Source of the DNA: Bdellovibrionales bacterium
Lineage (GTDB): Bacteria > Bdellovibrionota > Bdellovibrionia > Bdellovibrionales > UBA1609
Reading direction: 5' to 3'
Length of the DNA: 64,000 bases
Assembly (NCBI GenBank): GCA_965247685.1
Contig: OZ252021.1
Coordinates: forward strand, 833,271-897,270
Shown here: positions 1-39,646 of the stretch, piece by piece
Layout of the letters: every line of letters starts with the position of its first letter
Numbering within the stretch: position 1 is the first letter of the stretch
Position numbers and translations under genes: made by a program
Notes under the pieces: model-generated
Database searches by the model: none
What the model saw: only the letters and a program-made list of their open reading frames with translations
What the model was told of the DNA's origin: nothing

Positions 1-68
1 CCTTAAGAGATAAAATAGAGAATCTAGATATTGATTTTGGAGTCAGAAAGAAAGCTTTATTTACTTTA

Positions 69-686: not shown

Positions 687-981
687 ATTTATTAGACTGA
701 AATTATTTAATCATCGGCTCATCCAATAGTAACTCAACAAAAGATATTTTGGATTAAAAAAAACTCTAGGAGAGTGTAGAAATTACATTTTTCATTTTTT
801 GCTGGTATTTTCGATTTATTATGTGGTATATCTTTTGCATAAATGGAAAGAGTTAAGTCGAACTGTTTATTTAAAAAAGACTTTTTTTATTTTGCATCGA
901 GTATGTTTCTAATAGGAGTTAAATAAGATAATACTTAGAAAGTTAAAAGAAAGTTTTATATTTATAAACAGGAGTAATGGA

Positions 982-2316: not shown

Positions 2317-2618
2317 ATTTATCAGACTGAAATTATTTAATCATCGGCTCATCCAATAGTAACTCAACAAAAGATATTTTGGATTTAAAAAAAAACTCTA
2401 GGAGAGTGTAGATATTACATATTTCACGATTTTTGATGGATACTTTTAGTGCATTATGATAGTTTATCTTTTGCATAAATGGAAAGAGTTAAGTCGAACT
2501 GTTTATTTAAAATAGACTTTTTTTTATTTTGCGTCGAGCATGTTTCTAATAGGAGTTAAATAAGATAATACTTAGAAAGTTAAAAGAAAGTTTTATATTT
2601 ATAAACAGGAGTAATGGA

Positions 2619-3609
2619 ATGACATTTAAGAAATTCAAAAACAGTTTTCAACACAGATATACAACAGTCTCATGCGTTTTTATGGTGATTTTGTTTATAC
2701 TGCCTTTTCAAGCCTACACACTACAGGATGATTCTCGAACAACTCTTATGATTGCATCGATGGAAGGTCGTGTAGAAATTGTAGAGTCCTTGCTCAAAAA
2801 TGGAAGTGATCCAAAAGCCAAAGATATTAATGGTAATACAGCTCTGATGCTGGCAGCGAGGTATGGGAAACTGCGGGTCGCGGAGTTGTTATTAGTGGAG
2901 AATGGAGCTGATGTTAATGCCAAAGATAATTATGGTAGGACGGCTCTGATGTACGCAGCGAGGTATGGGAAACTGCGGGTCGCGGAGTTGTTATTAGTGG
3001 AGAATGGAGCTGATGTTAATGCCAAAGATAATTATGGTAGGACGGCTCTGATGTACGCAGCGAGGTATGGGAATTTGCAAGTCGCGGAATTATTAGTGGA
3101 GAATGGAGCTGATATGAATGCCACAGATAATGATGGTCTGACGGCTCTGATGTACGCAGCGTGGGATGAGAATCTGCAAGTCACGGAATTCTTAGTGGAA
3201 AGTTGGAGCTGATATAAATGCCACAGATAATTGGGGTCAGACGGCTCTGATGATCGCAGCGTGGGATGAGAATCTGCAAGTCACGGAATTCTTAGTGGAA
3301 AGTGGAGCTGATCTCAATGCCACAGATAATAAGGGTAGGACGGCTCTGATGCGGGTAGCGAGGTATGGGAATCTGCAAGTCGCGGAGTTCTTAGTGGAAA
3401 GTGGAGCTGATCTCAATGTCGCAGCTGATGATGGTAGTACGGCTCTGATGATGGCAGCGAGGTCTGAGAATCTGCCAGTCACGGAATTCTTAGTGGAAAG
3501 TGGAGCTGATATGAATGCCACAGCTGATGATGGTAGGACGGCTCTGATGTTCGCAAAGGAAGAAGGTCATATAGAAATTGTGAAGTTATTACAAAATCTA
3601 AACAAATAA
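2619..3609 (+). pseudogene. Ankyrin-repeat paralog interrupted by a +1 frameshift
   Basis: ORFs 2619..3212 and 3250..3609 are in different frames but both are ANK repeats. The recurrent 'gtggaaagtggagctga' reads 'gtggaaagTtggagctga' at about 3196-3212. The extra T (3203/3204) creates TGA at 3210-3212. The N-terminus is nearly identical to that of 982..2316. Confidence 0.7.
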
Positions 3610-4181
3610 AGAGTAAAGTAAAGTTTACGAAATTTATTTAGATTGTGAAATCAGATCGATATTATTTAATCACAAACTCTTCTCTAATCATCGATTTCCC
3701 AAATAGATATAACAACAGATCATTCCTCTCTCTTTCAAGTCTGTCAAATATTTACACTTCACACTTTTATCTTTAAAAATTTAGTGTTTTTTTGTACTGT
3801 TGGTGTGAGTCAAATAAATATATTTTAATTGGAAGTAGCGACCTATTTCTTGGAGTGAATATGAATTTGAGAATATCAATGAGATACTTTGTGAGTTTAA
3901 GTTTAGAAAAATAGAAAAGCATCTTGGAATAAACAAAAAGAAGTGAAGACAGGTTTTAGTGAAGTTAAGTAATTTCTCTTTCTTTTGTAGTGTAAGCGTA
4001 AAAAATATAAAAACAAAATCCAATAAAGAGGAGAAACTTTAATCCTTTTACTGCTTTTTTAAAAAGAAGATAAAGAAAGTTGAGTATTTGCAGTTTGCAT
4101 CTCTATGTAGCACATTTCTTCATACCACGGATACATGAATAGCCCATCTCAACATTTGTTTTTTGTATTCTCAAATTAAGT

Positions 4182-5120
4182 TTATGGTTTATTTGCTTCA
4201 AGTTCTTTGATTCTGTCTTTCATCCTTTGCTTAATACGCTCTCGCACTCTTTTATCGGAGCCTGTAAGTATAGTGGTCGCTGATCCAATGAGTGTCACAG
4301 GTGCCATCAAAAATCCTCCGATTTTCAATAGCTGATCTCTAAAAGGTGTAGCCCATGGGGAAAAGAGTAATCCCACTCCAAAGGCTGCTCCCCCCACCCC
4401 TCCAGCTATTTCCAAATCCTCGTCGTCAGTCATAGCTTTCGCTATCTCGGAGCCAACCTGGTATCCAATATATCCTGTTCCTGTTATGACCAGCACCAAT
4501 GGGCCGAAGGTCGTCGAGGCTTGCAAGAGTGTTACTGTCAAGCCCATTGGACCAAGCGCTCCCACATAGCGACATATTAAGTTTGTCAACCCCGGGGTGT
4601 TTAAACAAGACTTCACATCACCCAGTGCATCTAAGTAGAGATTCAGAACAGGACGCACTGTTTCAAGAGAGGCCTTGATTGTTCCGGCATCTTGACTGGC
4701 ATTTTCAAACTCTGCATGGAAATAAGACTTGATAGTTGAATTTTCTTTATCCACTAAAAGCTCTTTTGTTAGTTTATAAGTAGATATGAGATAATCATGC
4801 ACCCCTGCCATTATCCCCATGCCACAACCTGTGACGTGGTTTGATCTAGGACAACCTTTAATAAATTTCCTTTTCACCCCTTTGCATTCAGGTTTTCTTC
4901 GCATCTTTCTGCAAAGCAAGTTACCAGTATCAGTTGAAAATTCTATCAAGTCTCTTTCTCCTAAGTTGCTACTGAGTGGTGTTTTTTGAGGGCAATTTTG
5001 AGTAGTACAAGGACTTCCAGCTTCTGTATCAGATTCATCAGGATCATAGGAAAAACTAGATCCAGCGCTTAAAAGAAATAAACTTAATAGCACTACCTTT
5101 AAACTATTTTTTGTATTCAT
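4182..5120 (-). CDS. Secreted Cys-containing protein with C-terminal Gly-rich hydrophobic helices (cassette copy A)
   Basis: 312 aa. Signal peptide (VVLLSLFLLSAGSSFS). Gly-zipper-like segments (ITGTGYIGYQVG, AGGVGGAAFGVGLLF) and a basic tail. Paralog of 7123..8109. Confidence 0.6.
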   Translation of the reverse strand: MNTKNSLKVVLLSLFLLSAGSSFSYDPDESDTEAGSPCTTQNCPQKTPLSSNLGERDLIEFSTDTGNLLCRKMRRKPECKGVKRKFIKGCPRSNHVTGCGMGIMAGVHDYLISTYKLTKELLVDKENSTIKSYFHAEFENASQDAGTIKASLETVRPVLNLYLDALGDVKSCLNTPGLTNLICRYVGALGPMGLTVTLLQASTTFGPLVLVITGTGYIGYQVGSEIAKAMTDDEDLEIAGGVGGAAFGVGLLFSPWATPFRDQLLKIGGFLMAPVTLIGSATTILTGSDKRVRERIKQRMKDRIKELEANKP

Positions 5121-5770
5121 TTCTCTTCTCCTTCTTTATCTTTACCTTTATTCTTATCTTTCTGATCTAAAACTGTCATTTGTATTCCTATTTTTTGTGC
5201 TTTTTTGAAAAACCTACTCACACTTCTATTTTGAAGTGCCTCTGTTTTTGGACTAATCACCAATATTTGATAGATGTGATCTGAAAAATAAAGCAGTCTT
5301 TCTTTAAAGAAGACAAGTTGTGTAACATTTCTTTTATAAGAGCCAGTGATATTCAATTCAATAAATTTTTTTCTCTTCTTTAAACTGTGTTGATCGGCTT
5401 TCCAAGTTCCGATATTGAAGAGCATAAGATCTTCTTGTTTTAGTTGAACAAATTTTTCGAAAAAATCATCGGACTGTAATTCTTTCCAATCAACTTTTTT
5501 ATCTTTTTTTTGGAGATAAAGAGTGCCAATAACTTTAGGATTGTCTTTTAATTTGTAAGTTGAAACTCCATCGGCGACACGAACTCCTGACCATTGAGAA
5601 CCCATATCATGGATAGGAAGAGGAGCAGGAGCTAGCTCTAACTCTATTTTTTCTGTTTCTTTAGGAGATTGCTCTTTATTAGAAGTGTTATTTTTTTTTG
5701 AAAAGGCAGTTCCACTAATAAAAAGAGTTAATAAAATAAAAAATTTCATAAGGTAAATTATACGATACAT
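5117..5770 (-). CDS. Secreted hypothetical protein (cassette copy A)
   Basis: 217 aa with a signal peptide. 4-nt overlap with the downstream gene. Differs at 2 residues from 8106..8759. Confidence 0.6.
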   Translation of the reverse strand: MYRIIYLMKFFILLTLFISGTAFSKKNNTSNKEQSPKETEKIELELAPAPLPIHDMGSQWSGVRVADGVSTYKLKDNPKVIGTLYLQKKDKKVDWKELQSDDFFEKFVQLKQEDLMLFNIGTWKADQHSLKKRKKFIELNITGSYKRNVTQLVFFKERLLYFSDHIYQILVISPKTEALQNRSVSRFFKKAQKIGIQMTVLDQKDKNKGKDKEGEEK

Positions 5771-6135
5771 TGACGACAGTTATCAATGAAAGACTATTTA
5801 TTAAGTTGATGTTCCTAGACTTTATTCTACTTAACAAACGATTGATATAGCAATGCCGATCTATGGAAGGGAAATTTTAACAGAGCCATAAATAAAATAG
5901 AAAAATTTGCTGAAGAAAGAGATTGGAGTAAATGGCTTAACTAGTGATATGGACAAATAACTCAAAGCACACAGTTCTAAATTCGTCCAGTTGCCCCCGC
6001 CATTCTCTCGCATCAGTGACACCAACAAATAAATCGAATGGTTTTTTATAGAGATATTCGACACTTCTATTTATGACTTGAGATGAAAATTTATTAATTT
6101 TTTTAATAAATATTCGATATAGAAATGTACTTGAT

Positions 6136-6171
6136 GTTTTGATTGCACCACAATTTCCTATATGATAAAAT
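6136..6171 (+). repeat. Solo CRISPR repeat (35/36 match to array repeat)
   Basis: gttttgattgcacCacaatttcctatatgataaaat, same orientation as the array, with one substitution. It retains the TGaTAAAAT extended -10. Confidence 0.85.
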
Positions 6172-6177
6172 CACCAT

Positions 6178-6250
6178 ATAGAGGCACGCGAGCTGGGTCT
6201 CTATCTTTCATGGGTGCAAGAAGGTAGTGAGTTTTTCACCTTCTTTTTTA
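6178..6250 (+). ncRNA. Candidate small RNA driven by the solo-repeat promoter
   Basis: Starts about 7 nt after the repeat's TAAAAT. Contains an unusually GC-rich stem region (atagag-gcacgcgagctgggt-ctctat). Ends in a hairpin (agaaggt...accttct) plus a T-run at 6219-6249. No plus-strand CDS lies upstream that this terminator could serve. Confidence 0.3.
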
Positions 6251-6272
6251 TTATAAATTATTTAAAAATAAA

Positions 6273-6956
6273 TTATGGAAAGAACAGCGTTTTTATCCAA
6301 TGAGTAAAATTTCCTTTAAAGGTATTCATGGATTCACACGAGTATTCCTTTTGGTAAATGGGTTGATTAGAGTATTTTGAAAAATATTTTTTTACTTCTT
6401 GATCCGTCATAGGTTCTCTTTTTACAGGATACACATGACCAGTTGATTTTTTTCTCTTTTTGGTATCAAAATAAATTTTAGTTCCTTTTCTTGGGTGCTC
6501 TAAATAAGTAGAAGTCTCAGTGAGCTTGTGAGTTTTAAGATCTAAACTGAAAGTCACTAAGCTTGGACAGATAATATGTAAGCGAACGATTTGTTGATAC
6601 TCACCCTTATAAAGTTTATCAAAAGTTTTTGTTCCTTCCTCAGCTAATTTTCCAGTTGGAGCTTTTATACTTGTCAAAACTGTATCTTGGATATAGTTCA
6701 CTTGTGCCAATTGATCTGTGATTTGAATGTTATAGTGTCCACCCGGAGTTTTTGCATCTAAATGATCTTTATAATTCTTTTGTAAAGAACTTATGATTTT
6801 TGGAGGAAAGTCCATGTGATCGACTTGAATACCATTAAAATGTGACACAGAAAAAATAACACCTGTTCCAGTTTCTTTATGCAAGCAACTGTAATGTTTT
6901 TCTGCGCAGGCGTTAAAGCTGAATAAAATAAAAATAAGCAAGCAAAGTTTTTTCAT
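6273..6956 (-). CDS. Secreted hypothetical protein
   Basis: 227 aa with signal peptide (LCLLIFILFSFNACA). Lies between the two cassette copies. Confidence 0.55.
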   Translation of the reverse strand: MKKLCLLIFILFSFNACAEKHYSCLHKETGTGVIFSVSHFNGIQVDHMDFPPKIISSLQKNYKDHLDAKTPGGHYNIQITDQLAQVNYIQDTVLTSIKAPTGKLAEEGTKTFDKLYKGEYQQIVRLHIICPSLVTFSLDLKTHKLTETSTYLEHPRKGTKIYFDTKKRKKSTGHVYPVKREPMTDQEVKKYFSKYSNQPIYQKEYSCESMNTFKGNFTHWIKTLFFP

Positions 6957-7122
6957 CTTCTTGCTTTAAAGTAACAAAATATTAAAAAATATGCAATTTA
7001 GAGGCATTAGAATAAGTGATATTTTAGTATCAAAGTATTACAAACTCTTATCCATTTTCAATTTTATCAAAATGAAAAATTAATATTATACTATGTTCTG
7101 TTTGTCGTACTTAGCAGTGAGT

Positions 7123-8109
7123 TTAAGGCTTATTTGCTTCCCATTGCCTAATACGCTCTCGCTTTCTTTCAAGTTTATTTGCTTCATGTTCTTTGATTTT
7201 GTCTATCATCCTTTGCTTAACACGCTCTCGCACTCTTTTATCGGAGCCTGTAAGTAGAACTGTCATTGATCCAATGACTGTCACAGGTGTCGTAAAAATT
7301 CTTCCGAATTTCGAGAGCTTATTTCTAAGAGGTGCACCATATTTGGAAAATATTAATCCCACTCCAAGGGCTGTTCCCGCCACCCCTCCAGCTATTCTCG
7401 AATCCTCGTCGTCAGTCATAAGTTCCGTTATTTCGGAGCCAATCTGGTACCCAATAAATCCTGCTCCTGTTAGGAACATCGTGAATGCGGCGGCCCCTCT
7501 CACGCGAGCCAAGACTGCTGTTGTCATGCCCACTAGAGGAACTCCTATCACATAGTGACATGCCATGTTTACCAACCCAACGTCGTTTAAACAAGAATTC
7601 ACATCACGCAGTGCATCGAAGTAGAGCTGCAGAACAGGACGTACTGCTTCAATAGAGGCCTCGAATGTTCCGGCATCTTGACTGGCATTTTCAAACTCTG
7701 CATGAAAATAAGACTTGATAGTTGAATTTTCTTTATCCACTAAAAACTCTTTTGTTAGTTTATAAGTAGATACGAGATAATCTAACAACCCGTCAAACAT
7801 CCCTAAGCCACAACCTTTGATTCCGTCAAAGACTTCGTCTGAACTACAACCTTTAAGAAATTCCTTTTTCTCCCCTTTGCATTCAGGTCTTTTTTGCATC
7901 TTTTTGCAAAGCAAGTCATCAGTTGAAAATTCTATCAAGTCTCTTTCTCCTAAGTTGCTACTGAGTGGTGTTTTTTGAGGGCAATTTTGAGTAGTACAAG
8001 GACTTCCAGCTTCTGTATCAGATTCATCAGGATCATAGGAAAAACTAGATTCAGCGCTTAAAAGAAATAAACTTAATAGCACTACCTTTAAACTATTTTT
8101 TGTATTCAT
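7123..8109 (-). CDS. Secreted Cys-containing protein with C-terminal Gly-rich hydrophobic helices (cassette copy B)
   Basis: 328 aa. The first ~64 aa match copy A except one residue (G/E in the signal peptide). The central STYKLTKE..ENSTIKSYFHAEFENASQDAGT block is near-identical (one substitution). The membrane half is strongly diverged. The tail carries an extra ERKRERIRQWEANKP unit. Confidence 0.6.
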   Translation of the reverse strand: MNTKNSLKVVLLSLFLLSAESSFSYDPDESDTEAGSPCTTQNCPQKTPLSSNLGERDLIEFSTDDLLCKKMQKRPECKGEKKEFLKGCSSDEVFDGIKGCGLGMFDGLLDYLVSTYKLTKEFLVDKENSTIKSYFHAEFENASQDAGTFEASIEAVRPVLQLYFDALRDVNSCLNDVGLVNMACHYVIGVPLVGMTTAVLARVRGAAAFTMFLTGAGFIGYQIGSEITELMTDDEDSRIAGGVAGTALGVGLIFSKYGAPLRNKLSKFGRIFTTPVTVIGSMTVLLTGSDKRVRERVKQRMIDKIKEHEANKLERKRERIRQWEANKP

Positions 8110-8759
8110 TTCTCTTCTCCTTCTTTATCTTTACCTTTATTCTTATCTTTCTGATCTAAAACTGTCATTTGTATTCCTATTTTTTGTGCTTTTTTGAAAA
8201 ACCTACTCACACTTCTATTTTGAAGTGCCTCTGTTTTTGGACTAATCACCAATATTTGATAGATGTGATTTGAAAAATAAAGCAGTCTTTCTTTAAAGAA
8301 GACAAGTTGTGTAACATTTCTTTTATAAGAGCCAGTGATATTCAATTCAATAAATTTTTTTCTCTTCTTTAAACTGTGTTGATCGGCTTTCCAAGATCCG
8401 ATATTGAAGAGCATAAGATCTTCTTGTTTTAGTTGAACAAATTTTTCAAAAAAATCATCGGACTGTAATTCTTTCCAATCAACTTTTTTATCTTTTTTTT
8501 GGAGATAAAGAGTGCCAATAACTTTAGGATTGTCTTTTAATTTGTAAGTTGAAACTCCATCGGCGACACGAACTCCTGACCATTGAGAACCCATATCATG
8601 GATAGGAAGAGGAGCAGGAGCTAGCTCTAACTCTATTTTTTCTGTTTCTTTAGGAGATTGCTCTTTATTAGAAGTGTTATTTTTTTTTGAAAAGGCAGTC
8701 CCACTAATAAAAAGAGTTAATAAAATAAAAAATTTCATAAGGTAAATTATACGATACAT
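8106..8759 (-). CDS. Secreted hypothetical protein (cassette copy B)
   Basis: 217 aa, near-identical to 5117..5770. 4-nt overlap with 7123..8109. Confidence 0.6.
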   Translation of the reverse strand: MYRIIYLMKFFILLTLFISGTAFSKKNNTSNKEQSPKETEKIELELAPAPLPIHDMGSQWSGVRVADGVSTYKLKDNPKVIGTLYLQKKDKKVDWKELQSDDFFEKFVQLKQEDLMLFNIGSWKADQHSLKKRKKFIELNITGSYKRNVTQLVFFKERLLYFSNHIYQILVISPKTEALQNRSVSRFFKKAQKIGIQMTVLDQKDKNKGKDKEGEEK

Positions 8760-8897
8760 TGACGACAGTTATCAATGAAAGACTATTTATTAAGTTGATG
8801 TTCCTAGACCTTATCACCTCTAATACATCTTAATGTTTGTTTTATTTGTATAAATAATACTACAATTGATGATAAAGTATCTGGGGAATCAAATCAT

Positions 8898-9398
8898 ATG
8901 AAATTTAACAATCATGCTTTAGTATTTATTATCCTTACCCTTATCGCATCACTCACCAGTTGTTCTTCTTCTTCTCGAAAGACAAAAACAGATAACAATA
9001 GAGAATACTTGGACGGATACCTTCTTGCAACTCCTGATGATCCACCACCCAGTAAACAAGGTCCCTCTAACAACATCTATTATGGTCGATTTAAAACTTG
9101 CACTGCATACTCTGAACTCTCTAGATCTCAATTACCATTAATGGCACGATTAACACTTCCTTTGTTAGGAAAGTTGCAAGATCTAACTACGGTTGATTGC
9201 AAAACAGCTCACACCTGTGACTGCTATAAGAATGAACACTTGGTGGTAGAAAGCTCTTTTGAGCCACCCCTTTATAGGTGTGTGGAATCTTCCTCTGCCC
9301 AAGTAGAAAATGAGGAAATATACAAACCAAATGAGAGTTTCTCAGGAGACGGTGTTATAAAGTTTGCTCTTCCTCGATCGGTTTGTAATAAGAATTAA
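8898..9398 (+). CDS. Putative lipoprotein
   Basis: 166 aa with lipobox-like LTSCSSSS after a hydrophobic N-terminus. Cys-rich mature part. Confidence 0.55.
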   Translation: MKFNNHALVFIILTLIASLTSCSSSSRKTKTDNNREYLDGYLLATPDDPPPSKQGPSNNIYYGRFKTCTAYSELSRSQLPLMARLTLPLLGKLQDLTTVDCKTAHTCDCYKNEHLVVESSFEPPLYRCVESSSAQVENEEIYKPNESFSGDGVIKFALPRSVCNKN

Positions 9399-9432
9399 AT
9401 GCACTAATATAATGAGTGTTCTATTGTACTAA

Positions 9433-9537
9433 GATTTCAATTCTTCTTGAGAGACAAAATGCTAATCTTATGAATAAAACTGTTAGTAACAGGCAATACG
9501 ATAGAATTCAAAAAATTGACTGTAACTATATAGATCC
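9433..9537 (+). other. Second copy of the CRISPR leader
   Basis: About 105 nt aligning to 12549-12651, nearly identical from 'atgaataaaactgttagtaacaggcaatacgatagaattcaaaaaattgactgtaactata' onward. It directly abuts a repeat. Confidence 0.7.
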
Positions 9538-9573
9538 GTTTTGATTGCACTACAATTTCCTATATGATAAAAT
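9538..9573 (+). repeat. Solo CRISPR repeat (36/36) attached to the leader copy
   Basis: Perfect gttttgattgcactacaatttcctatatgataaaat with no second repeat after it. Confidence 0.9.
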
Positions 9574-9628
9574 CTATATCAAAACCAAGCTAACAAACAA
9601 AATAAATTTCAATTTGTAAGTAGTTTAA

Positions 9629-9982
9629 TTACTTCTCACATTGAAACTCATAATTATGAGTTGGGTTGTAGCCCATAATCCATAAAAAAGGAATCCAAAA
9701 AAATAGTCCGCCAATTAAAGCTCCAACACTTAACCGTTCAGTTCGACTGAACATTACAGATTGGCTTTGACAGCCTGCTTTTCTCAAATTAACAGATGTT
9801 GTAGAACCCACTACTTTAGTATCAGAGTGCAAAACCTCACCTGTACCTTGATATTGACCATCGACATACACTTTGACGTTGCGGTCAATATTGCCATTCC
9901 TATCTACTACACGAATAGATGTGGTGCTAGCACAAGATATTAAAGAGCTTGCTACACAAATAGAAATGATACGAAAAAACAT
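9629..9982 (-). CDS. Putative lipoprotein (PEGA-like beta domain plus C-terminal hydrophobic segment)
   Basis: 117 aa. Lipobox SLISC, a VKVYVDGQYQGTGEV motif, and a C-terminal GALIGGLFFWIPFLWIMG segment. Confidence 0.5.
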   Translation of the reverse strand: MFFRIISICVASSLISCASTTSIRVVDRNGNIDRNVKVYVDGQYQGTGEVLHSDTKVVGSTTSVNLRKAGCQSQSVMFSRTERLSVGALIGGLFFWIPFLWIMGYNPTHNYEFQCEK

Positions 9983-10259
9983 AAAAACCCCCTTGGAATA
10001 GTTTATAGCATCCTACTGAGATGATTTAACATAGTCAATAATCAAAAGAAAAATAAATGAAGAAGTGTTCATTTTAATCAAATTTATTACAAACTAAGGC
10101 TAAACCTGCAACCATAAGTAATGCCAATTCAAAGAACTCGCTATTTTTTTAAGGGTGTTCTTATGGAAGACATAGCTGAAAGACATCAAAATGTCTTTCA
10201 GGTTATTTTATACCGAGCACATGGGTAACACTTTCGCTCTAAAGGGATGATCTTACTTG

Positions 10260-11108
10260 TTAAAAGTTTATCTTTTTAACAATATCTTTTGTTGTTTGAA
10301 CATAGTATGAAAAATTTTGATTAAGACCTTTTACTGTAGATTGTACTTCTTGCCATCCTATTTCCTGTGATGTCAGAAAATCATCACTATTCAAACAAGA
10401 ATCAATCAATGAAAGAGGTACATTTTTTGCTTCAAATACCTTTACGATATGTTTGGACAGCTCTTTAAAAAAATCATTAATTTTTCCTTCATCAAGAACT
10501 TTTGTATAAATTTGTTCTATATCATAAAAGTCACGAGCCCTATTGTTATGTGTGCTTCGATACTTATAATCAGGATGAGATTGACATATAGCTCGAAGTT
10601 TTTCCAGAATAAGTAAAGCCTTGGAATAAACTTTTATTTCAATGGACTTTACTCTAATTATTTCGAAACTTTCACTGTATTCCATTTCACTGATATCAAT
10701 TGGAATTTTATTTGTTAACAAACCTTCCGGAATAATAGCGGAGGCGGATTTTTGATAGACTTTGTTGTTCTTTAGTTATGAGTTTAAATTCAATAGCCCA
10801 TCCACTCAAGGAGTCAGAACTCCAGTCTGTCTTATTATAGGTTTACGAATTGGTTTGAAATCGATAACATATAGTTTATTTTTTAAAAATTCTTTACGTA
10901 TTGCTGATTCAAGATAATTAAAAAAATTATTTTCTTTCTCAATTTTTTCAGGAAAAGAAAAATCAGAATCTCTGGATAATCGAGATTTTAAATTATGTAC
11001 AAATCTTAGAGCTTGTCCTCCTTTTAAATACATCTTTCCACTTAAGATATCATGTGAATAAATGGCTACAAGAATTTTCCAAACAACCTCTTCAGCGGTT
11101 ATCATCAA
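10260..11108 (-). pseudogene. AbiEii/AbiGii-family nucleotidyltransferase toxin gene with two in-frame stops
   Basis: ORFs 10806..11108 and 10260..10721 are in the same frame. They are separated by TGA (10806-10808) and TAA (10776-10778). The N-terminal part has the KGGQALRF..RLSRDSDFSF NTase-like motif. The restored length of about 280 codons fits the family. Confidence 0.6.
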
Positions 11109-11961
11109 TCACTCCTTTGGGATAATGAATTTTCCATTTTGAATCATAAGACCAATTTTTATTAAAATTTTTATCTAAATAAAATGTTATTTTAGGAGAA
11201 GAAAAATAATTTAACCATTTTTTGCTGATATGAGGTTCCTTTAATCTGGAAAGTAGGAAACCTATAGACTGCCAGTAAGGATAAAAAGGGGAATAAGCTT
11301 CATAAACTTTATAGAGTTTGTTAATGTTTATGCGAGCTTTAGCAAAAGCATTTATAAGAGTTTTAATTCCACCACTATAATGGGGGCTGATTAGAGAATC
11401 GATAAGTGTTCTTTCCAGTGATGTAAAAAATATTTTAACTTGTCTTGTTTTATCTATTTTCAGTAATTTATTTTTAACTCCTATTTTACCTAAGTCTTGT
11501 TTTTCTAATAATGTAATTTTAGTTTTTTGATACATAAAGTATTTAGATGTTTTTCTTGGGGATTTAAGGAAGGCTTGATGTATTTTTGCTGAAATCTTTT
11601 CCTTTGAATGAGTAGGAATTCTTCCAACAATCTCTTTGGATAAAAAATATTCTTCTGGCCTATGATTTGTTAATTCATTTAAGTATAAAGCTGAAAAATG
11701 ACTAAGGTAATATCTTGGATGAAAAGCTGTTAATATATCAATAATTTGGATCTTATTTAAATTAAAAGTTAAGAGCTTATAATCTGCTGTTGCATTCCAA
11801 ACTACAGGGACTTCTGTTACAGCTCTTAGAATACGTGTTTTTTCTTGATCTGTAATACGTTTGTTTTTATGCATTTTTTGAAGTAGTTTTTCCAATGTTA
11901 TCTCAGGAAAAACCATAGGTAATTTTGAAGAAAGTTCTGTTTTAAATTTTGCAATGGACAT
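11092..11961 (-). CDS. AbiEi-family antitoxin / transcriptional regulator
   Basis: 289 aa. Overlaps the downstream toxin gene by 17 nt. LSHFSALYLNELT and TSLERTLIDSL..P.YSGG motifs resemble AbiEi proteins. Confidence 0.6.
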   Translation of the reverse strand: MSIAKFKTELSSKLPMVFPEITLEKLLQKMHKNKRITDQEKTRILRAVTEVPVVWNATADYKLLTFNLNKIQIIDILTAFHPRYYLSHFSALYLNELTNHRPEEYFLSKEIVGRIPTHSKEKISAKIHQAFLKSPRKTSKYFMYQKTKITLLEKQDLGKIGVKNKLLKIDKTRQVKIFFTSLERTLIDSLISPHYSGGIKTLINAFAKARININKLYKVYEAYSPFYPYWQSIGFLLSRLKEPHISKKWLNYFSSPKITFYLDKNFNKNWSYDSKWKIHYPKGVIDDNR

Positions 11962-11983
11962 TACTGTTTAACTCTGTTTTATT

Positions 11984-12011
11984 GTATCATGTGTATATAT
12001 ACACATGATAC
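11984..12011. promoter_or_regulatory. Perfect 28-bp palindrome upstream of abiEi (candidate operator)
   Basis: gtatcatgtgtatatatacacatgatac, located 23 nt upstream of the abiEi start codon. Confidence 0.5.
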
Positions 12012-12171
12012 TTCTAATTTTAAGATAAGTCAAGAGAAAAAATGGTAATTTATTAGTTTACATAATTCTTAGTTTCTCCTACAATTTGAAGGGATTTTAA
12101 AGGGAAACTTCGGTTACTATAGGTTGTAAGCGGTTACCAACAGGATGAATAGGTGGTATTTTGTTTAATTT

Positions 12172-12326
12172 TGAAGTTATTTTAGAGTTTTGAAACCCTT
12201 ACCTTCTATCCCGTCCACCCCACAGATTTCTTCAAGAAGTGTAGAAAAAATATTTGGAACCTTTTGAACTTCATCTAAAACAACCTTCTTTGATAATCCT
12301 TTTACAAACCCAATAGGATCTTCTTT
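12172..12326 (-). pseudogene. Relic fragment of an AAA_14/DUF4143-type ATPase gene
   Basis: The minus-strand frame reads KEDPIGFVKGLSKKVVLDEVQKVPNIFSTLLEEI. This is a Walker-B-like VVLDEVQ..P context typical of that family. It is bounded by stops after about 50 codons. Confidence 0.25.
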
Positions 12327-12548
12327 GCTGTTTTAGTCACTACATCATCTTTAGCTATTCTGTTTGCCGTACTTAGCAGTGAGTTTAAGTTTAGAAAAAT
12401 AAAAAAGCATCTTGGAATAAACAAAAAGAAGTGAAGACAGGTTTTAGTGAAGTTAATTAAAGATTTTCTATCAGGATATGGAAGGGAGATTTTAACAGAG
12501 GCCATAAATAAAATAGAAAAATTTACTGGAGAAAGAGATTGGAGTAAG

Positions 12549-12651
12549 GATTTCAATTCTTATTGAGAGATAAAATGATATATATGAATAAAACTGTTAG
12601 TAACAGGCAATACGATAGAATTCAAAAAATTGACTGTAACTATATGGATCT
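12549..12651 (+). other. CRISPR leader (cas-distal end of array)
   Basis: 103-nt AT-rich sequence abutting repeat 1. It is conserved in a second copy at 9433-9537. Confidence 0.6.
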
Positions 12652-14270
12652 GTTTTGATTGCACTACAATTTCCTATATGATAAAATAAAGATATCAGCT
12701 CATCAAAAAAGCGGGTAGTTTTGATTGCACTACAATTTCCTATATGATAAAATGGTAAAACAATTTATAAGTATGCAAATGGTGTTTTGATTGCACTACA
12801 ATTTCCTATATGATAAAATGGGCTTGTTAAGCACTATTAATAGGTATATGTTTTGATTGCACTACAATTTCCTATATGATAAAATAGGTTGCGTTGAAAG
12901 TCTGTTTTGAAGGGCGTTTTGATTGCACTACAATTTCCTATATGATAAAATTGTTATATTATAGTTAAGTAAATAAATCTAGTTTTGATTGCACTACAAT
13001 TTCCTATATGATAAAATATAAATCTTGAACAATTCACTAAGATAATAGTTTTGATTGCACTACAATTTCCTATATGATAAAATTCTTCTTTTGTACTTTC
13101 TATTTTTGTAAGTGTTTTGATTGCACTACAATTTCCTATATGATAAAATTTAAAAGAAATAAACAAGGAGCTGGAAGTGGTTTTGATTGCACTACAATTT
13201 CCTATATGATAAAATTATTCGGTCATATTGTGTAAAGAGATCATGGTTTTGATTGCACTACAATTTCCTATATGATAAAATAAAGAATATGATGAATGAG
13301 GTGGCCAGAAGGTTTTGATTGCACTACAATTTCCTATATGATAAAATATATTATAGTTAAATAAACAATTGTCTAGGGTTTTGATTGCACTACAATTTCC
13401 TATATGATAAAATTGGTTTACAATTGGTGTAAAAACCAGCTGGGTTTTGATTGCACTACAATTTCCTATATGATAAAATATCTATAGATCAATTAAATAA
13501 AAAAGTCTAGTTTTGATTGCACTACAATTTCCTATATGATAAAATTGAAAAGCCGTGGTTGTCCGATAAGACTAGGTTTTGATTGCACTACAATTTCCTA
13601 TATGATAAAATATTACAAGTTGATTCACAAGCTCGGACGATGTTTTGATTGCACTACAATTTCCTATATGATAAAATATTTATAGAAGATTACAATAATA
13701 AATATGCGTTTTGATTGCACTACAATTTCCTATATGATAAAATACCACTAGAATAAATATGGATTGGAACTCCGTTTTGATTGCACTACAATTTCCTATA
13801 TGATAAAATTCATTGTACTGGATGGAATGAATATAATGTGTTTTGATTGCACTACAATTTCCTATATGATAAAATTCCTCGGTTAAGGACCTCGCCTCGA
13901 TTTATGTTTTGATTGCACTACAATTTCCTATATGATAAAATAGTTACAGAAATTGTGGGTTTCACAACTCCGTTTTGATTGCACTACAATTTCCTATATG
14001 ATAAAATGGGTCTTCGTTCCACACACCACCTGCGTTGGTTTTGATTGCACTACAATTTCCTATATGATAAAATAAATGTAAAATTTGAGAATGGATGTGC
14101 TTAGTTTTGATTGCACTACAATTTCCTATATGATAAAATTGAAGTGGCCGGAACTATTAATATTGCTACGTTTTGATTGCACTACAATTTCCTATATGAT
14201 AAAATTTATAAATATGCAAACGGTAGGAAGCCTTGTTTTGATTGCACTACAATTTCCTATATGATAAAAT
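12652..14270 (+). CRISPR. CRISPR array: 25 x 36-bp repeats, 24 spacers (23 x 30 nt, last one 29 nt)
   Basis: The repeat gttttgattgcactacaatttcctatatgataaaat recurs every 66 bp (12652, 12718 ... 14170, 14235). All 25 copies look identical. The plus-strand crRNA sense is inferred from tracrRNA complementarity. Confidence 0.97.
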
Positions 14271-14312
14271 AAGCCATTTATAACTCCTTGAAATTACAGG
14301 AGTTATTGGCTT
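14271..14312. terminator. Hairpin between array end and cas2 stop
   Basis: aagcca-ttt-ataactcct...aggagttat-tggctt imperfect inverted repeat. It is T-rich on the minus-strand side, downstream of cas2. Confidence 0.45.
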
Positions 14313-14321
14313 ATTAAAAAC

Positions 14322-14654
14322 TCAAAATAGTAGCAACTGTTGTTTCTTCTTAGTTAATTTTTCATCATACTTTCCACGAAAACTCACAATATTACTAAAC
14401 TGCTTATCCGTCACAGCTAATAGATCAATTTTCCCATTTTGAGGCAGTTGGTAAGAAATTTTTTTAATGAGACTTTCCACCTTTTCTTTACTAGGGCATA
14501 CCTTAGAATAAACAGAATATTGAACCATCTGAAAACCAAGATCCAATAAACGATACCTAAATTTAGATGCCATTTTTCTCTCTTTTTTTGTTGTTACCGG
14601 TAAATCAAAAAAAGTAAATAACCACATAACTCTATAATGACCTAAATAACTCAT
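14322..14654 (-). CDS. cas2: CRISPR-associated endoribonuclease Cas2
   Basis: 110 aa. VMWLFTFFDLPVTTKKERK..FRYRLLDLGFQMVQYSVY is typical of type II Cas2. ATGA overlap with the cas1 stop. Confidence 0.92.
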   Translation of the reverse strand: MSYLGHYRVMWLFTFFDLPVTTKKERKMASKFRYRLLDLGFQMVQYSVYSKVCPSKEKVESLIKKISYQLPQNGKIDLLAVTDKQFSNIVSFRGKYDEKLTKKKQQLLLF

Positions 14655-15601
14655 GCCGAAGTTTTTATTTTCTTAGAATATAAAAAACTTAAATTAAAAT
14701 TTTGCCAATTTATCTTTAGATTAATATCCCATTTTTTCTTTTCCTTACACAATACTAACGCCAAGGCGGTGGACATTCGAGAAATAACTTGAAACAGTGG
14801 ACTTATTCCAGAGCATCCTTCAACATCCACAATCACAAGACCTGACAGTACCTGCTTCACTTCCTTATTCACATCACGATATGCTTGTGAGTATAACTGT
14901 CTTACAACATAATCTGCGATAGGTCTAAAAGGCTCTATTAAGTCATCTACCAAACACATAGGATTATACATATTTCTATGATGAATACCTATACTAGGAT
15001 GAAGCCCTGACACAATAACACCTCTTGCAACACAAGACCGTATAATAGCATAAGCATAATTTAACATCGCATTAATGCCATCTCCATTTTGATCTCTTTT
15101 AAATTTGTTGGAAAATAATCTCATCCAATAGACCCTAGCACCTTGAGCTTCTAAATTATTCAAATCTCCAGGTTGAACTAAATTGGACATATTGAATAAT
15201 TTTTTATAAGGCAAACCTAACTCCTTCAATACTAAAGATTGATTTTTTAACTTTAACTTTACCACTTCTTTCCACAATCTTTTTTGTAAAGATTGACTCA
15301 TATTAACCTGAGATTGAATCCTTATATTTTGTTTACAATTTCCAACTAACGGCAAAAGAATAGCTCTTGGTGAAAAATTGGATCCACATATAGAAACTGG
15401 AATCCCACGATCTGATAATTCCACTAAAATATTAGAAGAATAAATACAACCATAACCTGTAATAACAATACCTAAAATATCATCAAGAGAAACACGAGAT
15501 AATAAATTCTGTTTTTCTTTGATCTCTAAAAACCCTCTATATAAACTTAGACGAATATTAGGTCTCGAGATTTCAATAAACTGTCCAAAACTACTACTCA
15601 C
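14651..15601 (-). CDS. cas1: CRISPR-associated integrase Cas1
   Basis: 316 aa. LNYAYAIIRSCVARGVIVSGLHPSIGIHHRN and DLIEPFRP motifs. Positioned between cas9 and cas2. Confidence 0.93.
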   Translation of the reverse strand: MSSSFGQFIEISRPNIRLSLYRGFLEIKEKQNLLSRVSLDDILGIVITGYGCIYSSNILVELSDRGIPVSICGSNFSPRAILLPLVGNCKQNIRIQSQVNMSQSLQKRLWKEVVKLKLKNQSLVLKELGLPYKKLFNMSNLVQPGDLNNLEAQGARVYWMRLFSNKFKRDQNGDGINAMLNYAYAIIRSCVARGVIVSGLHPSIGIHHRNMYNPMCLVDDLIEPFRPIADYVVRQLYSQAYRDVNKEVKQVLSGLVIVDVEGCSGISPLFQVISRMSTALALVLCKEKKKWDINLKINWQNFNLSFLYSKKIKTSA

Positions 15602-15610
15602 AAACTCAAC

Positions 15611-18600
15611 CTAAGCACTATGTCTTTTAGATTCTTCTTTACCAACAATAAAATCAGTCAATTGAACCAAACCACAAGGGCTAATATTAACTCGTTTAGG
15701 ATTACATTTTTGTAGAGAAGATGGACTCTTTTGTGTGTACTTATATTGATCTGATCTACTTCTGTTTCTTGCATCTACATTCGCTTCAAAATGCTCTGAA
15801 AATGTTAGATTTTTATTTTGTGTAAATTTAACAAGCCTCCAGAATCGACCAGCAAAAAATAACATATCCCCTTTCATCAATCTTGCTTTGTCTGGAATAG
15901 GCTTAAAAGTCTTTTGATTAGCAGAAAATATACTTATAACTTGTGCATCCCATTTTCCGCTTGAGTTTTTAAACAGTTGAATTGCATAATTTCCATCCTC
16001 CTGAAAAAATTTGTAAATTTTTCCAAATTTATTTTCAATAGGTATCACTCGTTCCTTTCTATTTAAGCGAACCCTGCGAATACCTGTTTTTTGGTGATAA
16101 TTAATTAAAAATTCTTTAGAGAGGGTATTATTGACTTTTAATTCTTTTAAAAAATCTTGTTTCACCTTTTCACTAATGATTCGACTTTCTATTTTCTTTT
16201 TATCTGCTCCGTTTAAAGTCAAAATTTCAACATAATGGATCACATTAATTGGCTTGGAAAAAGTATTAACACTACCTAATACCCCGTAAGCTGTATCATT
16301 GTGGAGTTGACCTGCTTTTTTAGTTCTCCTTCTGTGAGATACAATAATTTGATCTATTACTCTCTTAGCATCTTCTTTAAAAGAAGGCCAAGGAATCACA
16401 TCTTGTGTTATCACTCTACCAATATTCTCCAGCCTCTCTTTACTCTTTCCTTCTATTCCCTTCGCAATATTACTAATCTGTTGAACTAAAGAACGATCAA
16501 CTAAACCTATCACAAGAGCATCTTTTGCATGATGTCTATGATCGTTCCTATTTTTTTTATCATACTGTAACAAAGATCTTAAAAGAAATGTAGTCTGTCC
16601 TTTAACACTCCACACATCTTTACAAACTCTTCCTAAATACTGAATAGCATATTTAGATATATAACGAGTATCATTCAACTGCCTTTCTAAAAAGTTTCCA
16701 TTTTCTTCAAATTTCTTCATAGCATCCTTGTTAAATTTCCATCGTTTTTGCTCAGATAACTCATTAACTCTCTGAAGAATTCCTGCCCATCGCACTTTAT
16801 CAGATGAAAAGGCTTCATAAGGAGTTTGGTTCCCTTTTTGTTGATTAAAAACTTTATAAACCAACACTTTATTCATAAAGCCGTCATCTAAAGTCTTAGA
16901 GTAGGGCAATATGTGATCAACTTCCAGCTCTGGACTAAGAAGTTTAGTTTCTGGAATCTTTTTACCAGAGTAAACACAGGTATTGTTTTGCTCTTTCCAA
17001 AGCTTATATCTGACACGATTCGTTTTATTGTTAATTCCTCCAAACTCATCAATAAATTTTTTCGCATCTTCATTTCTTTTTTTATTATCATTTATTTTCT
17101 TATCTGATTTTTTTTTAGTTTCTGAGCCCATTGGTAAATCTCTAGCTGTCTCTATCACCACCTCCATCGGTTTTCCATAGACACGAAGGATATCATTTAC
17201 CAATAGCCTTAATTGATTAAAAGCAATATGGACTGTAGGATTTGGAATTCTGAAGGACTCAAATTTATTATGTTTACTCTCTGCTGTTTCAGACAATTTC
17301 ATCTCCACACAATGGTCTCCTAAAACTTGCTGATAAAGAGGTAGCTTGTCTAACAACTCACCTTTATGTCTCCTATCTGAATGATGCCAGCCTGCTAACT
17401 TAATAGCTTCAATTTCCAATTCTCCCTTTTCAAGAAAAGGTATAATTTTGTGAATAACTTTTCTACTGTATTTCCCATGATCTTGTGGAAGATCGTTCAT
17501 GTTTTCCAAAACGTTATCCAAAATTTGATCAGAAATATTTAAATTATTTTCTCTACTAAACTTTTGTAAATCTTTTAAGACTTCCTCATCCTTTTTTATA
17601 AAGATATCTTCTTGGCTTTCACCCTCCAATAACTCGATAAATTGATCCTGAATATCTAAAGACCAACTTTGCCAATCAGGTATAAGGTTTGTCAAAACTA
17701 TACTAGTTTGCTCTCCCTCTAAATAATTCCTATCGTTAATATCTAAGTTAAAACGAGAAAAGTCTTCTACATCAGAGAAAAAATTTTTAAATTCTTTTTC
17801 TAAAGAAGAAAATGTAACTTTATTTTTCTTTTGAAATAGCTTTTCAATAACATAATTTCTAAACTCAATACCTTTATCCATATCCTTCAATAACACACTT
17901 TCACCCATCATATTTATATAAGATAAATTATTTAATTCTTTTAAAATCCTAAATTTTTGAAAAGAAGGCAATGCTCTACTAATTCGTTTCTCACTAGGGA
18001 GAAAATAACATTTTCCGACAATAGACTTCTTTAATTGCCTTTGATGAAAAATAGCCTTATGAAATAAAGCTTTCAACTTTTGATCTTTCAACTTATCGTA
18101 ATATTGAGACTGAGAGTCCCAGAGTTTATTAAATTCATTTTCAATCATAGACCTTTGAGCATAAACAACATAATTCTCCTTAGCTCCAGCACCTATTGGC
18201 TTTCTAGCTAATATCCAGTGTTCTTGTTGAGATCCTGGGTGTTTTCTACTTTCTTCCATCTTTTGAAAACGTTTCCATAAAAATTCACCATATGTTCTAG
18301 CTCCACATTTTTCTAGTTGCTCTTCTGAATTTTCTACAGATTTAGCAATAATCCCATCCTCTTTTCCACTTCCTGATTTCCTATTACTTTTAAAACCTCT
18401 TCTTTGATTTAAGTGAAATAAAGCTCTTCCAAAATGATAAATATTCAACTTTTCATCCAGCCCCTTGGTTCTTATTTCATATGGGTTTAAATTTTGTAAC
18501 TCTTTTAAAGAACATTGATCCTCCGGGAATAATCCATATTTTTTCAACAAATGAAGAAGATAAGCTCTTCTCTGTAAATAACGATCTCTTTGTCTTCTTT

Positions 18601-18838
18601 GCAGCCTTGCCTGCCTGCGAGTGGCATTTAAAGTTGTATAATCTTTGGAATTTCTACCAGAGGGAAAAATCCTCACCCCTGCTTCTGTAATCTCTTTAGG
18701 ACTGTTGTTTTTATCTAAATTATATAAAGCCCACCCTATAGAATTAGTTCCTATGTCTAAAGCAAGTCTTAAGTTATTTGGGGGTTGTTTTAAATCTTGA
18801 TTTAGATCTTTCAGTTTTAAAATTTTATCACCTGACAT
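15611..18838 (-). CDS. cas9: Cas9 (type II-C-sized, 1075 aa)
   Basis: RuvC-I LALDIGTNSIGWAL. Arg-rich bridge helix RRQARLQRRQRDRYLQRR. RuvC-II VVIETARDL. HNH EVDHILPYS...NKVLV...N. RuvC-III HHAKDALVIG. All catalytic residues are present. Confidence 0.95.
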   Translation of the reverse strand: MSGDKILKLKDLNQDLKQPPNNLRLALDIGTNSIGWALYNLDKNNSPKEITEAGVRIFPSGRNSKDYTTLNATRRQARLQRRQRDRYLQRRAYLLHLLKKYGLFPEDQCSLKELQNLNPYEIRTKGLDEKLNIYHFGRALFHLNQRRGFKSNRKSGSGKEDGIIAKSVENSEEQLEKCGARTYGEFLWKRFQKMEESRKHPGSQQEHWILARKPIGAGAKENYVVYAQRSMIENEFNKLWDSQSQYYDKLKDQKLKALFHKAIFHQRQLKKSIVGKCYFLPSEKRISRALPSFQKFRILKELNNLSYINMMGESVLLKDMDKGIEFRNYVIEKLFQKKNKVTFSSLEKEFKNFFSDVEDFSRFNLDINDRNYLEGEQTSIVLTNLIPDWQSWSLDIQDQFIELLEGESQEDIFIKKDEEVLKDLQKFSRENNLNISDQILDNVLENMNDLPQDHGKYSRKVIHKIIPFLEKGELEIEAIKLAGWHHSDRRHKGELLDKLPLYQQVLGDHCVEMKLSETAESKHNKFESFRIPNPTVHIAFNQLRLLVNDILRVYGKPMEVVIETARDLPMGSETKKKSDKKINDNKKRNEDAKKFIDEFGGINNKTNRVRYKLWKEQNNTCVYSGKKIPETKLLSPELEVDHILPYSKTLDDGFMNKVLVYKVFNQQKGNQTPYEAFSSDKVRWAGILQRVNELSEQKRWKFNKDAMKKFEENGNFLERQLNDTRYISKYAIQYLGRVCKDVWSVKGQTTFLLRSLLQYDKKNRNDHRHHAKDALVIGLVDRSLVQQISNIAKGIEGKSKERLENIGRVITQDVIPWPSFKEDAKRVIDQIIVSHRRRTKKAGQLHNDTAYGVLGSVNTFSKPINVIHYVEILTLNGADKKKIESRIISEKVKQDFLKELKVNNTLSKEFLINYHQKTGIRRVRLNRKERVIPIENKFGKIYKFFQEDGNYAIQLFKNSSGKWDAQVISIFSANQKTFKPIPDKARLMKGDMLFFAGRFWRLVKFTQNKNLTFSEHFEANVDARNRSRSDQYKYTQKSPSSLQKCNPKRVNISPCGLVQLTDFIVGKEESKRHSA

Positions 18839-19044: not shown

Positions 19045-19130
19045 CAATCATATAGGAAATTGTGGTACTCTCAATAACAAGCGAGTATTCGCACCAGTCT
19101 TAGGCGAAGGAAACTTCGCCTTTGTTTTTT
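19045..19130 (+). ncRNA. tracrRNA: tracrRNA
   Basis: Anti-repeat atcatataggaaattgtggtac (19047-19068) is complementary to repeat nt 10-31, with one G:U and one A:C. The tcaa at 19072-19075 can pair again with repeat nt 4-7 after an internal loop. Small hairpin gcga-gtat-tcgc. Terminator ggcgaagg-aaa-cttcgcc plus T-run (19103-19130). Promoter-like TTGATC-N17-TCTAAT at 19010-19038. Confidence 0.8.
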
Positions 19131-19346: not shown

Positions 19347-19382
19347 GTTTTGATTGTACTACAATTTCCCGTAGGTAAAACT
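19347..19382 (+). repeat. Degenerate solo CRISPR repeat next to the tracrRNA
   Basis: gttttgattgTactacaatttccCGtaGgTAaaaCt. The first 23 nt match the repeat except C11T; the 3' third has decayed and the embedded -10 is lost. Confidence 0.7.

Positions 19383-38134: not shown

Positions 38135-39646
<1,512 letters not shown>

Follow-up and report, generated by a model that had tools for sequence, protein, structure and literature searches.

In the genome of a Bdellovibrionales bacterium (assembly GCA_965247685.1), a stretch of 64,000 nucleotides on contig OZ252021.1 (positions 833,271 to 897,270; hereafter the window) holds a CRISPR-Cas locus whose repeat also occurs outside its array. The array counts 25 perfect copies of the 36-nt repeat GTTTTGATTGCACTACAATTTCCTATATGATAAAAT, with 24 spacers of 29-30 nt between them, and lies next to cas2, cas1 and cas9 (Table 1). 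Elsewhere in the window there is one further perfect copy at 9538-9573 and one with a single mismatch at 6136-6171; chance predicts no such matches. Upstream of the solitary perfect copy runs a flank of ~115 nt, here called U, which also precedes the array, and flank and repeat together form a unit that is present twice in direct orientation: 9423-9573 aligns to 12538-12687 at 92% identity over 152 nt (E 9e-57). An earlier note on this DNA had described the unit as a CRISPR leader joined to its repeat, placed at 9433-9573 and 12549-12687 (105 or 103 nt plus 36 nt), and the alignment confirms these limits.

The CRISPR-Cas locus and its repeats

On gene content the system is assigned to type II-C, because the locus carries cas9-cas1-cas2 only; neither csn2 nor cas4 was found there, the cas genes being flanked by an open reading frame (ORF) for a trypsin-like peptidase on one side and by the array on the other. 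The anti-repeat of the predicted trans-activating CRISPR RNA (tracrRNA) forms a duplex of -33 kcal/mol with the repeat. This RNA is kept in three of the related loci, which we number with the prefix L (L002, L003 and L005), with compensatory changes in its terminator stem.

The ends of the repeat resemble those of the C. jejuni repeat (GTTTT...TGGTAAAAT). Sigma-70-like elements on the plus strand were detected in every repeat by a promoter scan (TTGATT-16-TATGAT), and direct reading reveals a second element in each (TTGCAC-17-TAAAAT, with TGa in front). Because such plus-strand elements stand in each repeat, transcription of the array is predicted to run toward cas2 and to converge with that of the cas genes. 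The locus shares several features with type II-C arrays of the C. jejuni and N. meningitidis type (PMC12080349): the cas set is restricted to cas9-cas1-cas2 and converges with the array, the 3' end of the repeat bears an extended -10-like TGaTAAAAT, a terminator hairpin separates cas2 from the array, and the cas-distal repeat adjoins the oldest spacer. It differs from them in that the extra repeat with its ~115 nt of flank occurs twice and is joined by a third lone repeat, each set ~3 kb of genes apart, and in that the extra repeat is unmutated.

The identity of the two U copies climbs toward the repeat, from ~31/36 at 9433-9468 (including a 2-nt indel) through 67/69 at 9469-9537 to 36/36 in the repeat itself. 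Because the copies differ in this graded fashion along the unit, they are not one sequence used twice by the assembler. An insert of 3078 bp thus lies between two perfect copies of the repeat, one at 9538-9573 and the other at 12652-12687.

The third solitary repeat, at 6136, was overlooked by the earlier note. Its T14C change is the base present in the repeats of L002, L003, L005 and L007; L001 and L006 have T. Its flanks are homologous neither to U nor to spacers, and an alignment that treated the upstream flank as a diverged U was not significant. The promoter of this repeat points into a terminator-like hairpin and T-run on the plus strand (~6218-6250), ~50-80 nt downstream. Judged by its sequence, 19347-19382 is a fourth, degenerate solitary repeat. 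We ruled it out as a tracrRNA, since it reads in the sense of a CRISPR RNA (crRNA) and lacks the conserved tail. Among relatives, L007 has a lone degenerate repeat (738-773, 5 mismatches, array orientation) ~6 kb upstream of cas9, where it adjoins an AAA_14/DUF4143 gene at the 3' end. In L006, cas9 is preceded by two repeat-like copies in tandem (6073-6174), which share the position and orientation of the tracrRNA anti-repeat of other relatives.

The first spacer of the array begins AAAGATATCAGC. A search for protospacers from which the protospacer adjacent motif (PAM) could be read gave no viral match for three spacer cores and no spacer match within the window; neither the exact repeat nor the U core was found in metagenome contigs, nor the repeat in viral contigs. 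In two pairs of spacers (12754-12783 and 14206-14234; 12952-12981 and 13348-13377), the members cover overlapping, slightly differing versions of one protospacer, and one pair consists of the second-oldest and the newest spacer of the array. These pairs suggest that variants of one invader were sampled repeatedly.

Table 1. Features of the locus, in window coordinates
Feature	Position	Strand	Remarks
Unit I	3891-6171		module A 3891-3972; gene pair 4187-5825; module B 5862-5931; 204 nt unrelated to U; repeat 6136
Third solitary repeat	6136-6171	+	one mismatch, T14C
227-aa secreted protein gene	6273-6956	-	in the segment after the 6136 repeat
Unit II	7096-9573		module C 7096-7127; gene pair 7173-8814; ORF166; U; repeat 9538
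Gene pair II	7173-8814	-	328-aa and 217-aa secreted proteins
166-aa lipoprotein gene (ORF166)	8898-9398	+	LTSC lipobox; immediately left of the left U copy
Left copy of U	9423-9537	+	by alignment
Solitary perfect repeat, left copy	9538-9573	+	embedded promoter fires rightward, antisense to the lipoprotein gene
117-aa lipoprotein gene	9629-9982	-	signal peptide, LISC lipobox; no family match
Hairpin, 11-bp stem	10176-10201	both	terminator-like; between lipoprotein gene and abiEii
abiEii, nucleotidyltransferase toxin	10260-11108	-	PF08843, split over ORFs 10806-11108 and 10260-10721
abiEi, antitoxin/regulator	11092-11961	-	intact, 289 aa; PADLOC AbiEi models, best E 2.6e-14
Perfect palindrome, 28 nt	11984-12011	.	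upstream of abiEi; 96-100% conserved in L008 and L009
AAA_14/DUF4143 ATPase relic	~12180-12349	-	~51 codons, Walker-B region VVLDEVQ
Unit III	12358-12687		modules C/A 12358-12460; module B 12477-12547; U; first array repeat 12652
Module C	12358-12389	+	97% to 7096-7127
Module A	12379-12460	+	97.6% to 3891-3972
Module B	12477-12547	+	94% to 5862-5931
Right copy of U	12538-12651	+	adjoins the array on its transcription-upstream side
CRISPR array	12652-14270	+	25 perfect 36-nt repeats, predicted transcription toward cas2
cas2-proximal flank	14271-14321	+	hairpin AACTCCTTGAAATTACAGGAGTT, T-rich tail ATTGGCTTATT
cas2	14322-14654	-	Pfam
cas1	14651-15601	-	Pfam
cas9	15611-18838	-	1075 aa, Pfam Cas9 domains
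tracrRNA (predicted)	19046-19130	+	anti-repeat, GCGA/TCGC hairpin, terminator; divergent from cas9
Degenerate repeat, crRNA sense	19347-19382	+	upstream of cas9; 7 mismatches in all, its first 23 nt almost intact

Array polarity and the duplicated flank

In type II-C systems new spacers are inserted at the last, cas2-proximal repeat (PMC12080349), as was demonstrated by experiment in Riemerella (PMC6008519), and the 'extra' repeat beside the oldest spacer, at the cas-distal end, is often mutated (PMC12080349). We tested the polarity of the array on relatives reached through Cas9 and Cas1 homologues, with Cas1 identities of 56-77%; a genome scan with Cas9 yielded one locus, at 56% identity. All seven loci compared share a conserved cas2-proximal flank, in which a hairpin (AACyCCtTGAAATtACAGGrGTT) precedes T-rich sequence, and within the window this motif occurs only at 14271. 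It is probable from this conservation that 14271-14321 comprises the true acquisition leader together with a convergent terminator. The cas-distal flanks of the seven loci are not alignable with one another, and three of the six related arrays have a mutated terminal repeat at the cas-distal end (G1A in L001 and L007, degenerate in L003); that of the window is unmutated. The array of L003 contains a run of N (11789-11885), a part either masked or left unresolved, and its spacer count is incomplete.

U itself holds ATACGATAGAAT at 9496-9507, which is identical to the repeat 3' end at 10 of 12 positions and ends exactly 30 nt before the repeat. Because a repeat end standing in phase is rare in the background (matches of this grade occupy ~3e-4 of window positions, true repeats excluded), the last 30 nt of U look like a fossil spacer behind a decayed repeat. 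The idea that U is a fossil array throughout was rejected: when the repeat is aligned locally to U, no single alignment reaches significance, and only the in-phase 12-mer does.

U sits at the cas-distal end, away from the repeat at which spacers are inserted, and is not conserved among the seven loci. Given the polarity of type II-C arrays, the conserved cas2-proximal flank, the mutated distal repeats and the fossil repeat end, U is best understood as the transcription-upstream flank at the old, cas-distal end of the array and not as an acquisition leader. The leader identity that the unit had been given is thus not supported, as type II-C polarity and the non-alignable distal flanks point to a leader at the cas2 end. 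An alternative offered with it, that the array had been split, fails on other grounds, as splitting would not duplicate a flank outside the repeats.

A three-unit mosaic upstream of the array

Self-comparison of 1-12700 revealed that the duplicated flank belongs to a larger mosaic of three repeat-ended units, whose copies are 91-99% identical. The ancestral order would roughly have been C/A, gene pair, B, U and repeat, with each unit having suffered its own deletions. The homology breakpoints between units I and III and between units II and III agree within ~10 nt, at 12538-12547. Gene pair II is 90.8% identical to pair I (4187-5825) over 1650 nt. Within the pairs, the 217-aa genes differ at 4 of 654 nt (99.4% identical), and the larger proteins, of 312 and 328 aa, share an identical N-terminal region of ~64 residues before they diverge (69% overall). 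U shows a similar gradation, its core and the repeat being 98-100% identical and its 5' part ~86%. Because near-identical 217-aa genes, U core and repeat lie beside diverged C-terminal regions and a diverged U 5' part, the pattern points to recent or continuing gene conversion.

The secreted-protein genes, whose pairs are also delimited as 4182-5770 and 7123-8759, have no family match in Pfam, NCBIfam or PADLOC. The C-terminal region of the 312-aa and 328-aa proteins is glycine-rich and hydrophobic, and their layout resembles that of polymorphic toxins or effectors. Homologues of the pair in relatives occupy a variable island, without repeats nearby.

Between the two U copies lies everything that the earlier note had listed, namely a lipoprotein gene, the abiEi/abiEii pair, an ATPase relic and shared intergenic modules; its inventory lacked the two frameshifts of abiEii, the repeat at 6136 and the three-unit duplication. 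As in other AbiE operons, abiEi and abiEii overlap (11092-11108) and a palindrome precedes abiEi, here probably the operator through which AbiEi regulates its own expression. This operon differs from others in that the toxin frame is broken twice: two frameshifts ~85 nt apart leave ~25 codons out of frame (~10755-10830) with two stops, after which the frame is restored, and the AbiEii sequence is 75% identical at the amino acid level to an intact homologue in L009. The module accordingly has an AbiEi and no intact AbiEii toxin. The toxin gene may be a pseudogene, perhaps one inactivated very recently, or may carry long-read indel errors.

AbiEi has 36 homologues beyond the source protein, ~30 of them 62-82% identical. 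Those in the relatives' loci (66-82%) lie in toxin-antitoxin and defence islands together with Thoeris, Zeta, HipA, other AbiE pairs and AAA_14 genes, with no repeat-like sequence or array beside them. Nucleotide homology to relatives, namely L008 and L009, ends at the borders of the AbiE operon (10260-12041), which is 79-86% identical; none of the relatives' loci retrieved contains the lipoprotein gene or the modules. The ATPase relic, which alone has no Pfam match, is 90% identical in nucleotide sequence to an intact AAA_14/DUF4143 gene in L009. Because L001 has an intact AAA_14/DUF4143 gene just past the distal end of its array, the stub may be a native neighbour of the array.

The GC content of the segment (27-33%) is not distinct from that of its surroundings. 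A mobile-element origin was rejected, as searches of the segment found no integrase, transposase or recombinase (Pfam, NCBIfam, PADLOC), no convincing terminal inverted repeats and no similarity to plasmids or phages. We infer that the intervening 3 kb is a partly decayed patchwork of island genes and not a discrete captured cassette. The proposal that a defence cassette had been captured here overstates the case: the AbiE module, with its frameshifted toxin gene, sits in a mosaic of lipoprotein gene, ATPase stub and intergenic modules that also occur in the two units upstream, without the genes or ends of a mobile element. Excision of the segment as a circle had also been proposed. The bracketing direct repeats are real, with identical runs of 55 and 36 nt between the copies, and recombination between them could in principle loop out the 3-kb segment; if it does, a circular junction of module B-U-repeat-CTATATCAAAACC would be expected.

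Further out, a cluster of ankyrin-repeat genes (69-3609 and 21337-22350) contains large internal duplications (e.g. 2145-3555 against 515-1920, 87%). The 1.28-Mb source contig and the naming of relatives as Bdellovibrionales hint at a host-associated lifestyle. An Rfam search of the window returned only a 16S rRNA gene (complete, 38135-39646) and two tRNAs (31708 and 41310), with no 23S rRNA gene at the gathering thresholds.

Origin of the solitary repeats

On balance, we find it moderately probable that the solitary repeats arose through ordinary homology-driven segmental duplication and gene conversion that took in the terminal repeat of the array. Under this explanation, the recombining segment (C/A, gene pair, B, U and repeat) would adjoin the array inside a variable accessory and defence island, and copies of it would arise by homology-dependent recombination, either unequal crossing-over or allelic import from another strain. 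The duplicated segment would happen to include the array's terminal repeat; unit-specific deletions would follow, and gene conversion would keep the repeat and the repeat-proximal part uniform. The solitary repeats would then be by-products, each still with its embedded promoter, and could emit stray transcripts or extraneous crRNA. The locus shares with ordinary segmental duplication and gene conversion in islands its tandem units of 91-99% identity, their unit-specific deletions, the mosaic identity, and the pseudogenes and stubs between them. Relatives display a like tendency, with direct duplications on either side of their CRISPR-cas loci. The locus departs from such cases in that one border of each unit is the exact edge of a CRISPR repeat. 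We rate it as a further instance of solitary CRISPR repeats made by recombination around an array.

Several observations weigh against this explanation. The DNA that follows the repeats at 6136 and 9538 is unrelated, and a plain tandem duplication would have copied it. In both solitary copies homology halts exactly at the repeat 3' edge, and at 6136 the sequence on both sides of the repeat lacks homology. The repeat at 9538 is perfect though its flank has diverged by ~10%. Borders of such precision suggest a repeat-specific process, and because these facts misfit a simple tandem duplication, two repeat-specific alternatives stay alive. In addition, no genome closer than 77% Cas1 identity was found, so that the order of events, including the gain or loss of the segment, is inferred.

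The first alternative is capture through the repeat. DNA, circular or linear, that bore a solitary repeat or the flank with its repeat would have integrated into the first repeat of the array by homologous recombination of the Campbell type or, less plausibly, through Cas1-Cas2, so that perfect repeats came to flank each insert. All of 6136-14270 would then be one array, in which 3366 and 3078 bp stand as two giant 'spacers'. It would account for three repeats in the same orientation that delimit two inserts, for borders exact at the repeat ends, and for the fact that both inserts end rightward in the same U sequence and share module C; moreover, solitary repeat units are known on mobile elements (PMC10651486). 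We nevertheless regard capture as unlikely. The inserts have no mobile-element genes or ends, and they consist of decayed genes of a chromosomal island, homologues of which lie in the chromosomes of relatives. The site is the old end of the array, away from where Cas1-Cas2 act in type II-C systems (PMC6008519), and although unit I, to the left of the 6136 repeat, contains the same modules, its left side lacks a repeat. The 3-kb insert resembles a Cas1-Cas2 product in its flanking duplicated repeat; it is ~100 times the length of a spacer, and does not lie at the leader-proximal repeat. A comparison with RNA anti-CRISPRs (Racrs), solitary repeat units that phages and other mobile elements carry (PMC10651486), leads to the same contrast: both are copies of a host repeat outside the array, but those described here are chromosomal, with the array's own flank and no recognisable mobile element.

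A distinctly unlikely alternative is that the solitary repeats are remnants of earlier arrays, or of whole earlier CRISPR-cas insertions at this site, that collapsed to one repeat through recombination between repeats and lost their cas genes. The 6136 repeat would suit this history, since it carries T14C, as do most relatives' repeats, and is preceded by an unrelated flank of its own and followed by a terminator-like hairpin, as at the cas2-proximal end of the functional array. Repeated insertion is also hinted at by direct duplications that bracket CRISPR-cas in L001 (7062-7778 and 16267-17019), L005 (5583-5695 and 13964-14076) and L007 (4017-4090 and 13566-13640). The duplications of these three genomes are 79-96% identical, and the CRISPR-cas module itself may move or be rearranged by recombination in this lineage. 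Neither solitary repeat, however, has the conserved cas2-proximal flank or cas genes beside it, and the flank upstream of the 9538 copy is also that of the live array, a likeness for which a separate array would have no need.

It is improbable, in our estimate, that CRISPR repeats serve here as recombination sites in the fashion of integrons, accreting gene cassettes at the old end of the array. The segments 6172-9537 and 9574-12651 would have entered as related circles carrying flank and repeat and have recombined with the terminal repeat of the array; the solitary repeats would be the scars of these junctions, and the units would be re-excisable.

Solitary repeats that act as regulators include CreA and the scaRNA of F. 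novicida. Others encode crRNA-like regulators of neighbouring defence genes (crlRNA, CRISIS; bioRxiv 10.1101/2024.12.27.630466). By analogy, the solitary repeats of this locus, each with ~24 nt upstream, could give crRNA-like RNAs (crlRNA/ecrRNA, scaRNA-like) that pair with the tracrRNA and steer Cas9 to repress neighbours such as the AbiE or lipoprotein genes; an RNA of this kind would carry AATTGACTGTAACTATATRGATCY followed by the repeat. Like the known units, the lone repeats (6136, 9538, 19347) stand next to a cas locus and to defence or accessory genes, with both the 6136 and 9538 repeats beside such genes, and have an upstream pseudo-spacer placed as in a crRNA unit. The 9538 repeat is perfectly conserved while its flank diverged, and a -10-like box stands exactly 30 nt upstream of it, at the distance found in an ordinary repeat-spacer unit. 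Such regulation was demonstrated for type I-C, where the unit lies inside the cas operon and the repeats are degenerate rather than perfect (bioRxiv 10.1101/2024.12.27.630466). We searched both strands of the window with the 24 nt upstream of each solitary repeat as putative guides, the PAM being unknown: total matches and contiguous matches adjoining the repeat were no better than those of shuffled-guide controls, and none fell in a cassette promoter, so that no pseudo-spacer with partial complementarity to a regulated promoter beside a PAM was found in the window. Furthermore, the two copies of U differ at two of the six PAM-proximal positions nearest the repeat, and the flank shows no unusual RNA fold (folding z-scores ~0). 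A regulatory function therefore strikes us as very improbable.

Less credible still is an assembly artefact, in which strain variants of one hypervariable locus were joined in a long-read metagenome assembly. Units I-III do look like allelic versions of one array flank, the contig names of relatives point to long-read metagenome assemblies, and the paired frameshifts of abiEii could be indel errors; against this, the copies differ by both substitutions and indels, and the junctions, from repeat into unique DNA and from unique DNA into module C, each have a sequence of their own that real molecules must carry. Finally, the earlier suggestion that the left copy is a minimal leader-plus-repeat locus still able to acquire spacers can draw on its perfect repeat and ~105 nt of the live array's flank, but is highly implausible, as type II-C integration takes place at the cas2-proximal repeat (PMC6008519, PMC12080349), the conserved flank of which is missing beside 9538-9573, and the copy holds no spacers at all.

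If ordinary duplication and gene conversion account for the locus, two lessons would follow. For annotation, the AT-rich flank on the transcription-upstream side of a type II-C array would not be its acquisition leader; for genome evolution, island-scale recombination that takes in the terminal repeat of an array can yield lone perfect repeats. Such a repeat is at once a promoter and a site for pairing with the tracrRNA, and its possible stray transcripts or extraneous crRNAs bear on how type II-C systems limit them. Should repeat-precise capture or a regulatory role prove true instead, the locus would provide a mechanistic link between CRISPR arrays and the build-up or control of neighbouring defence genes.

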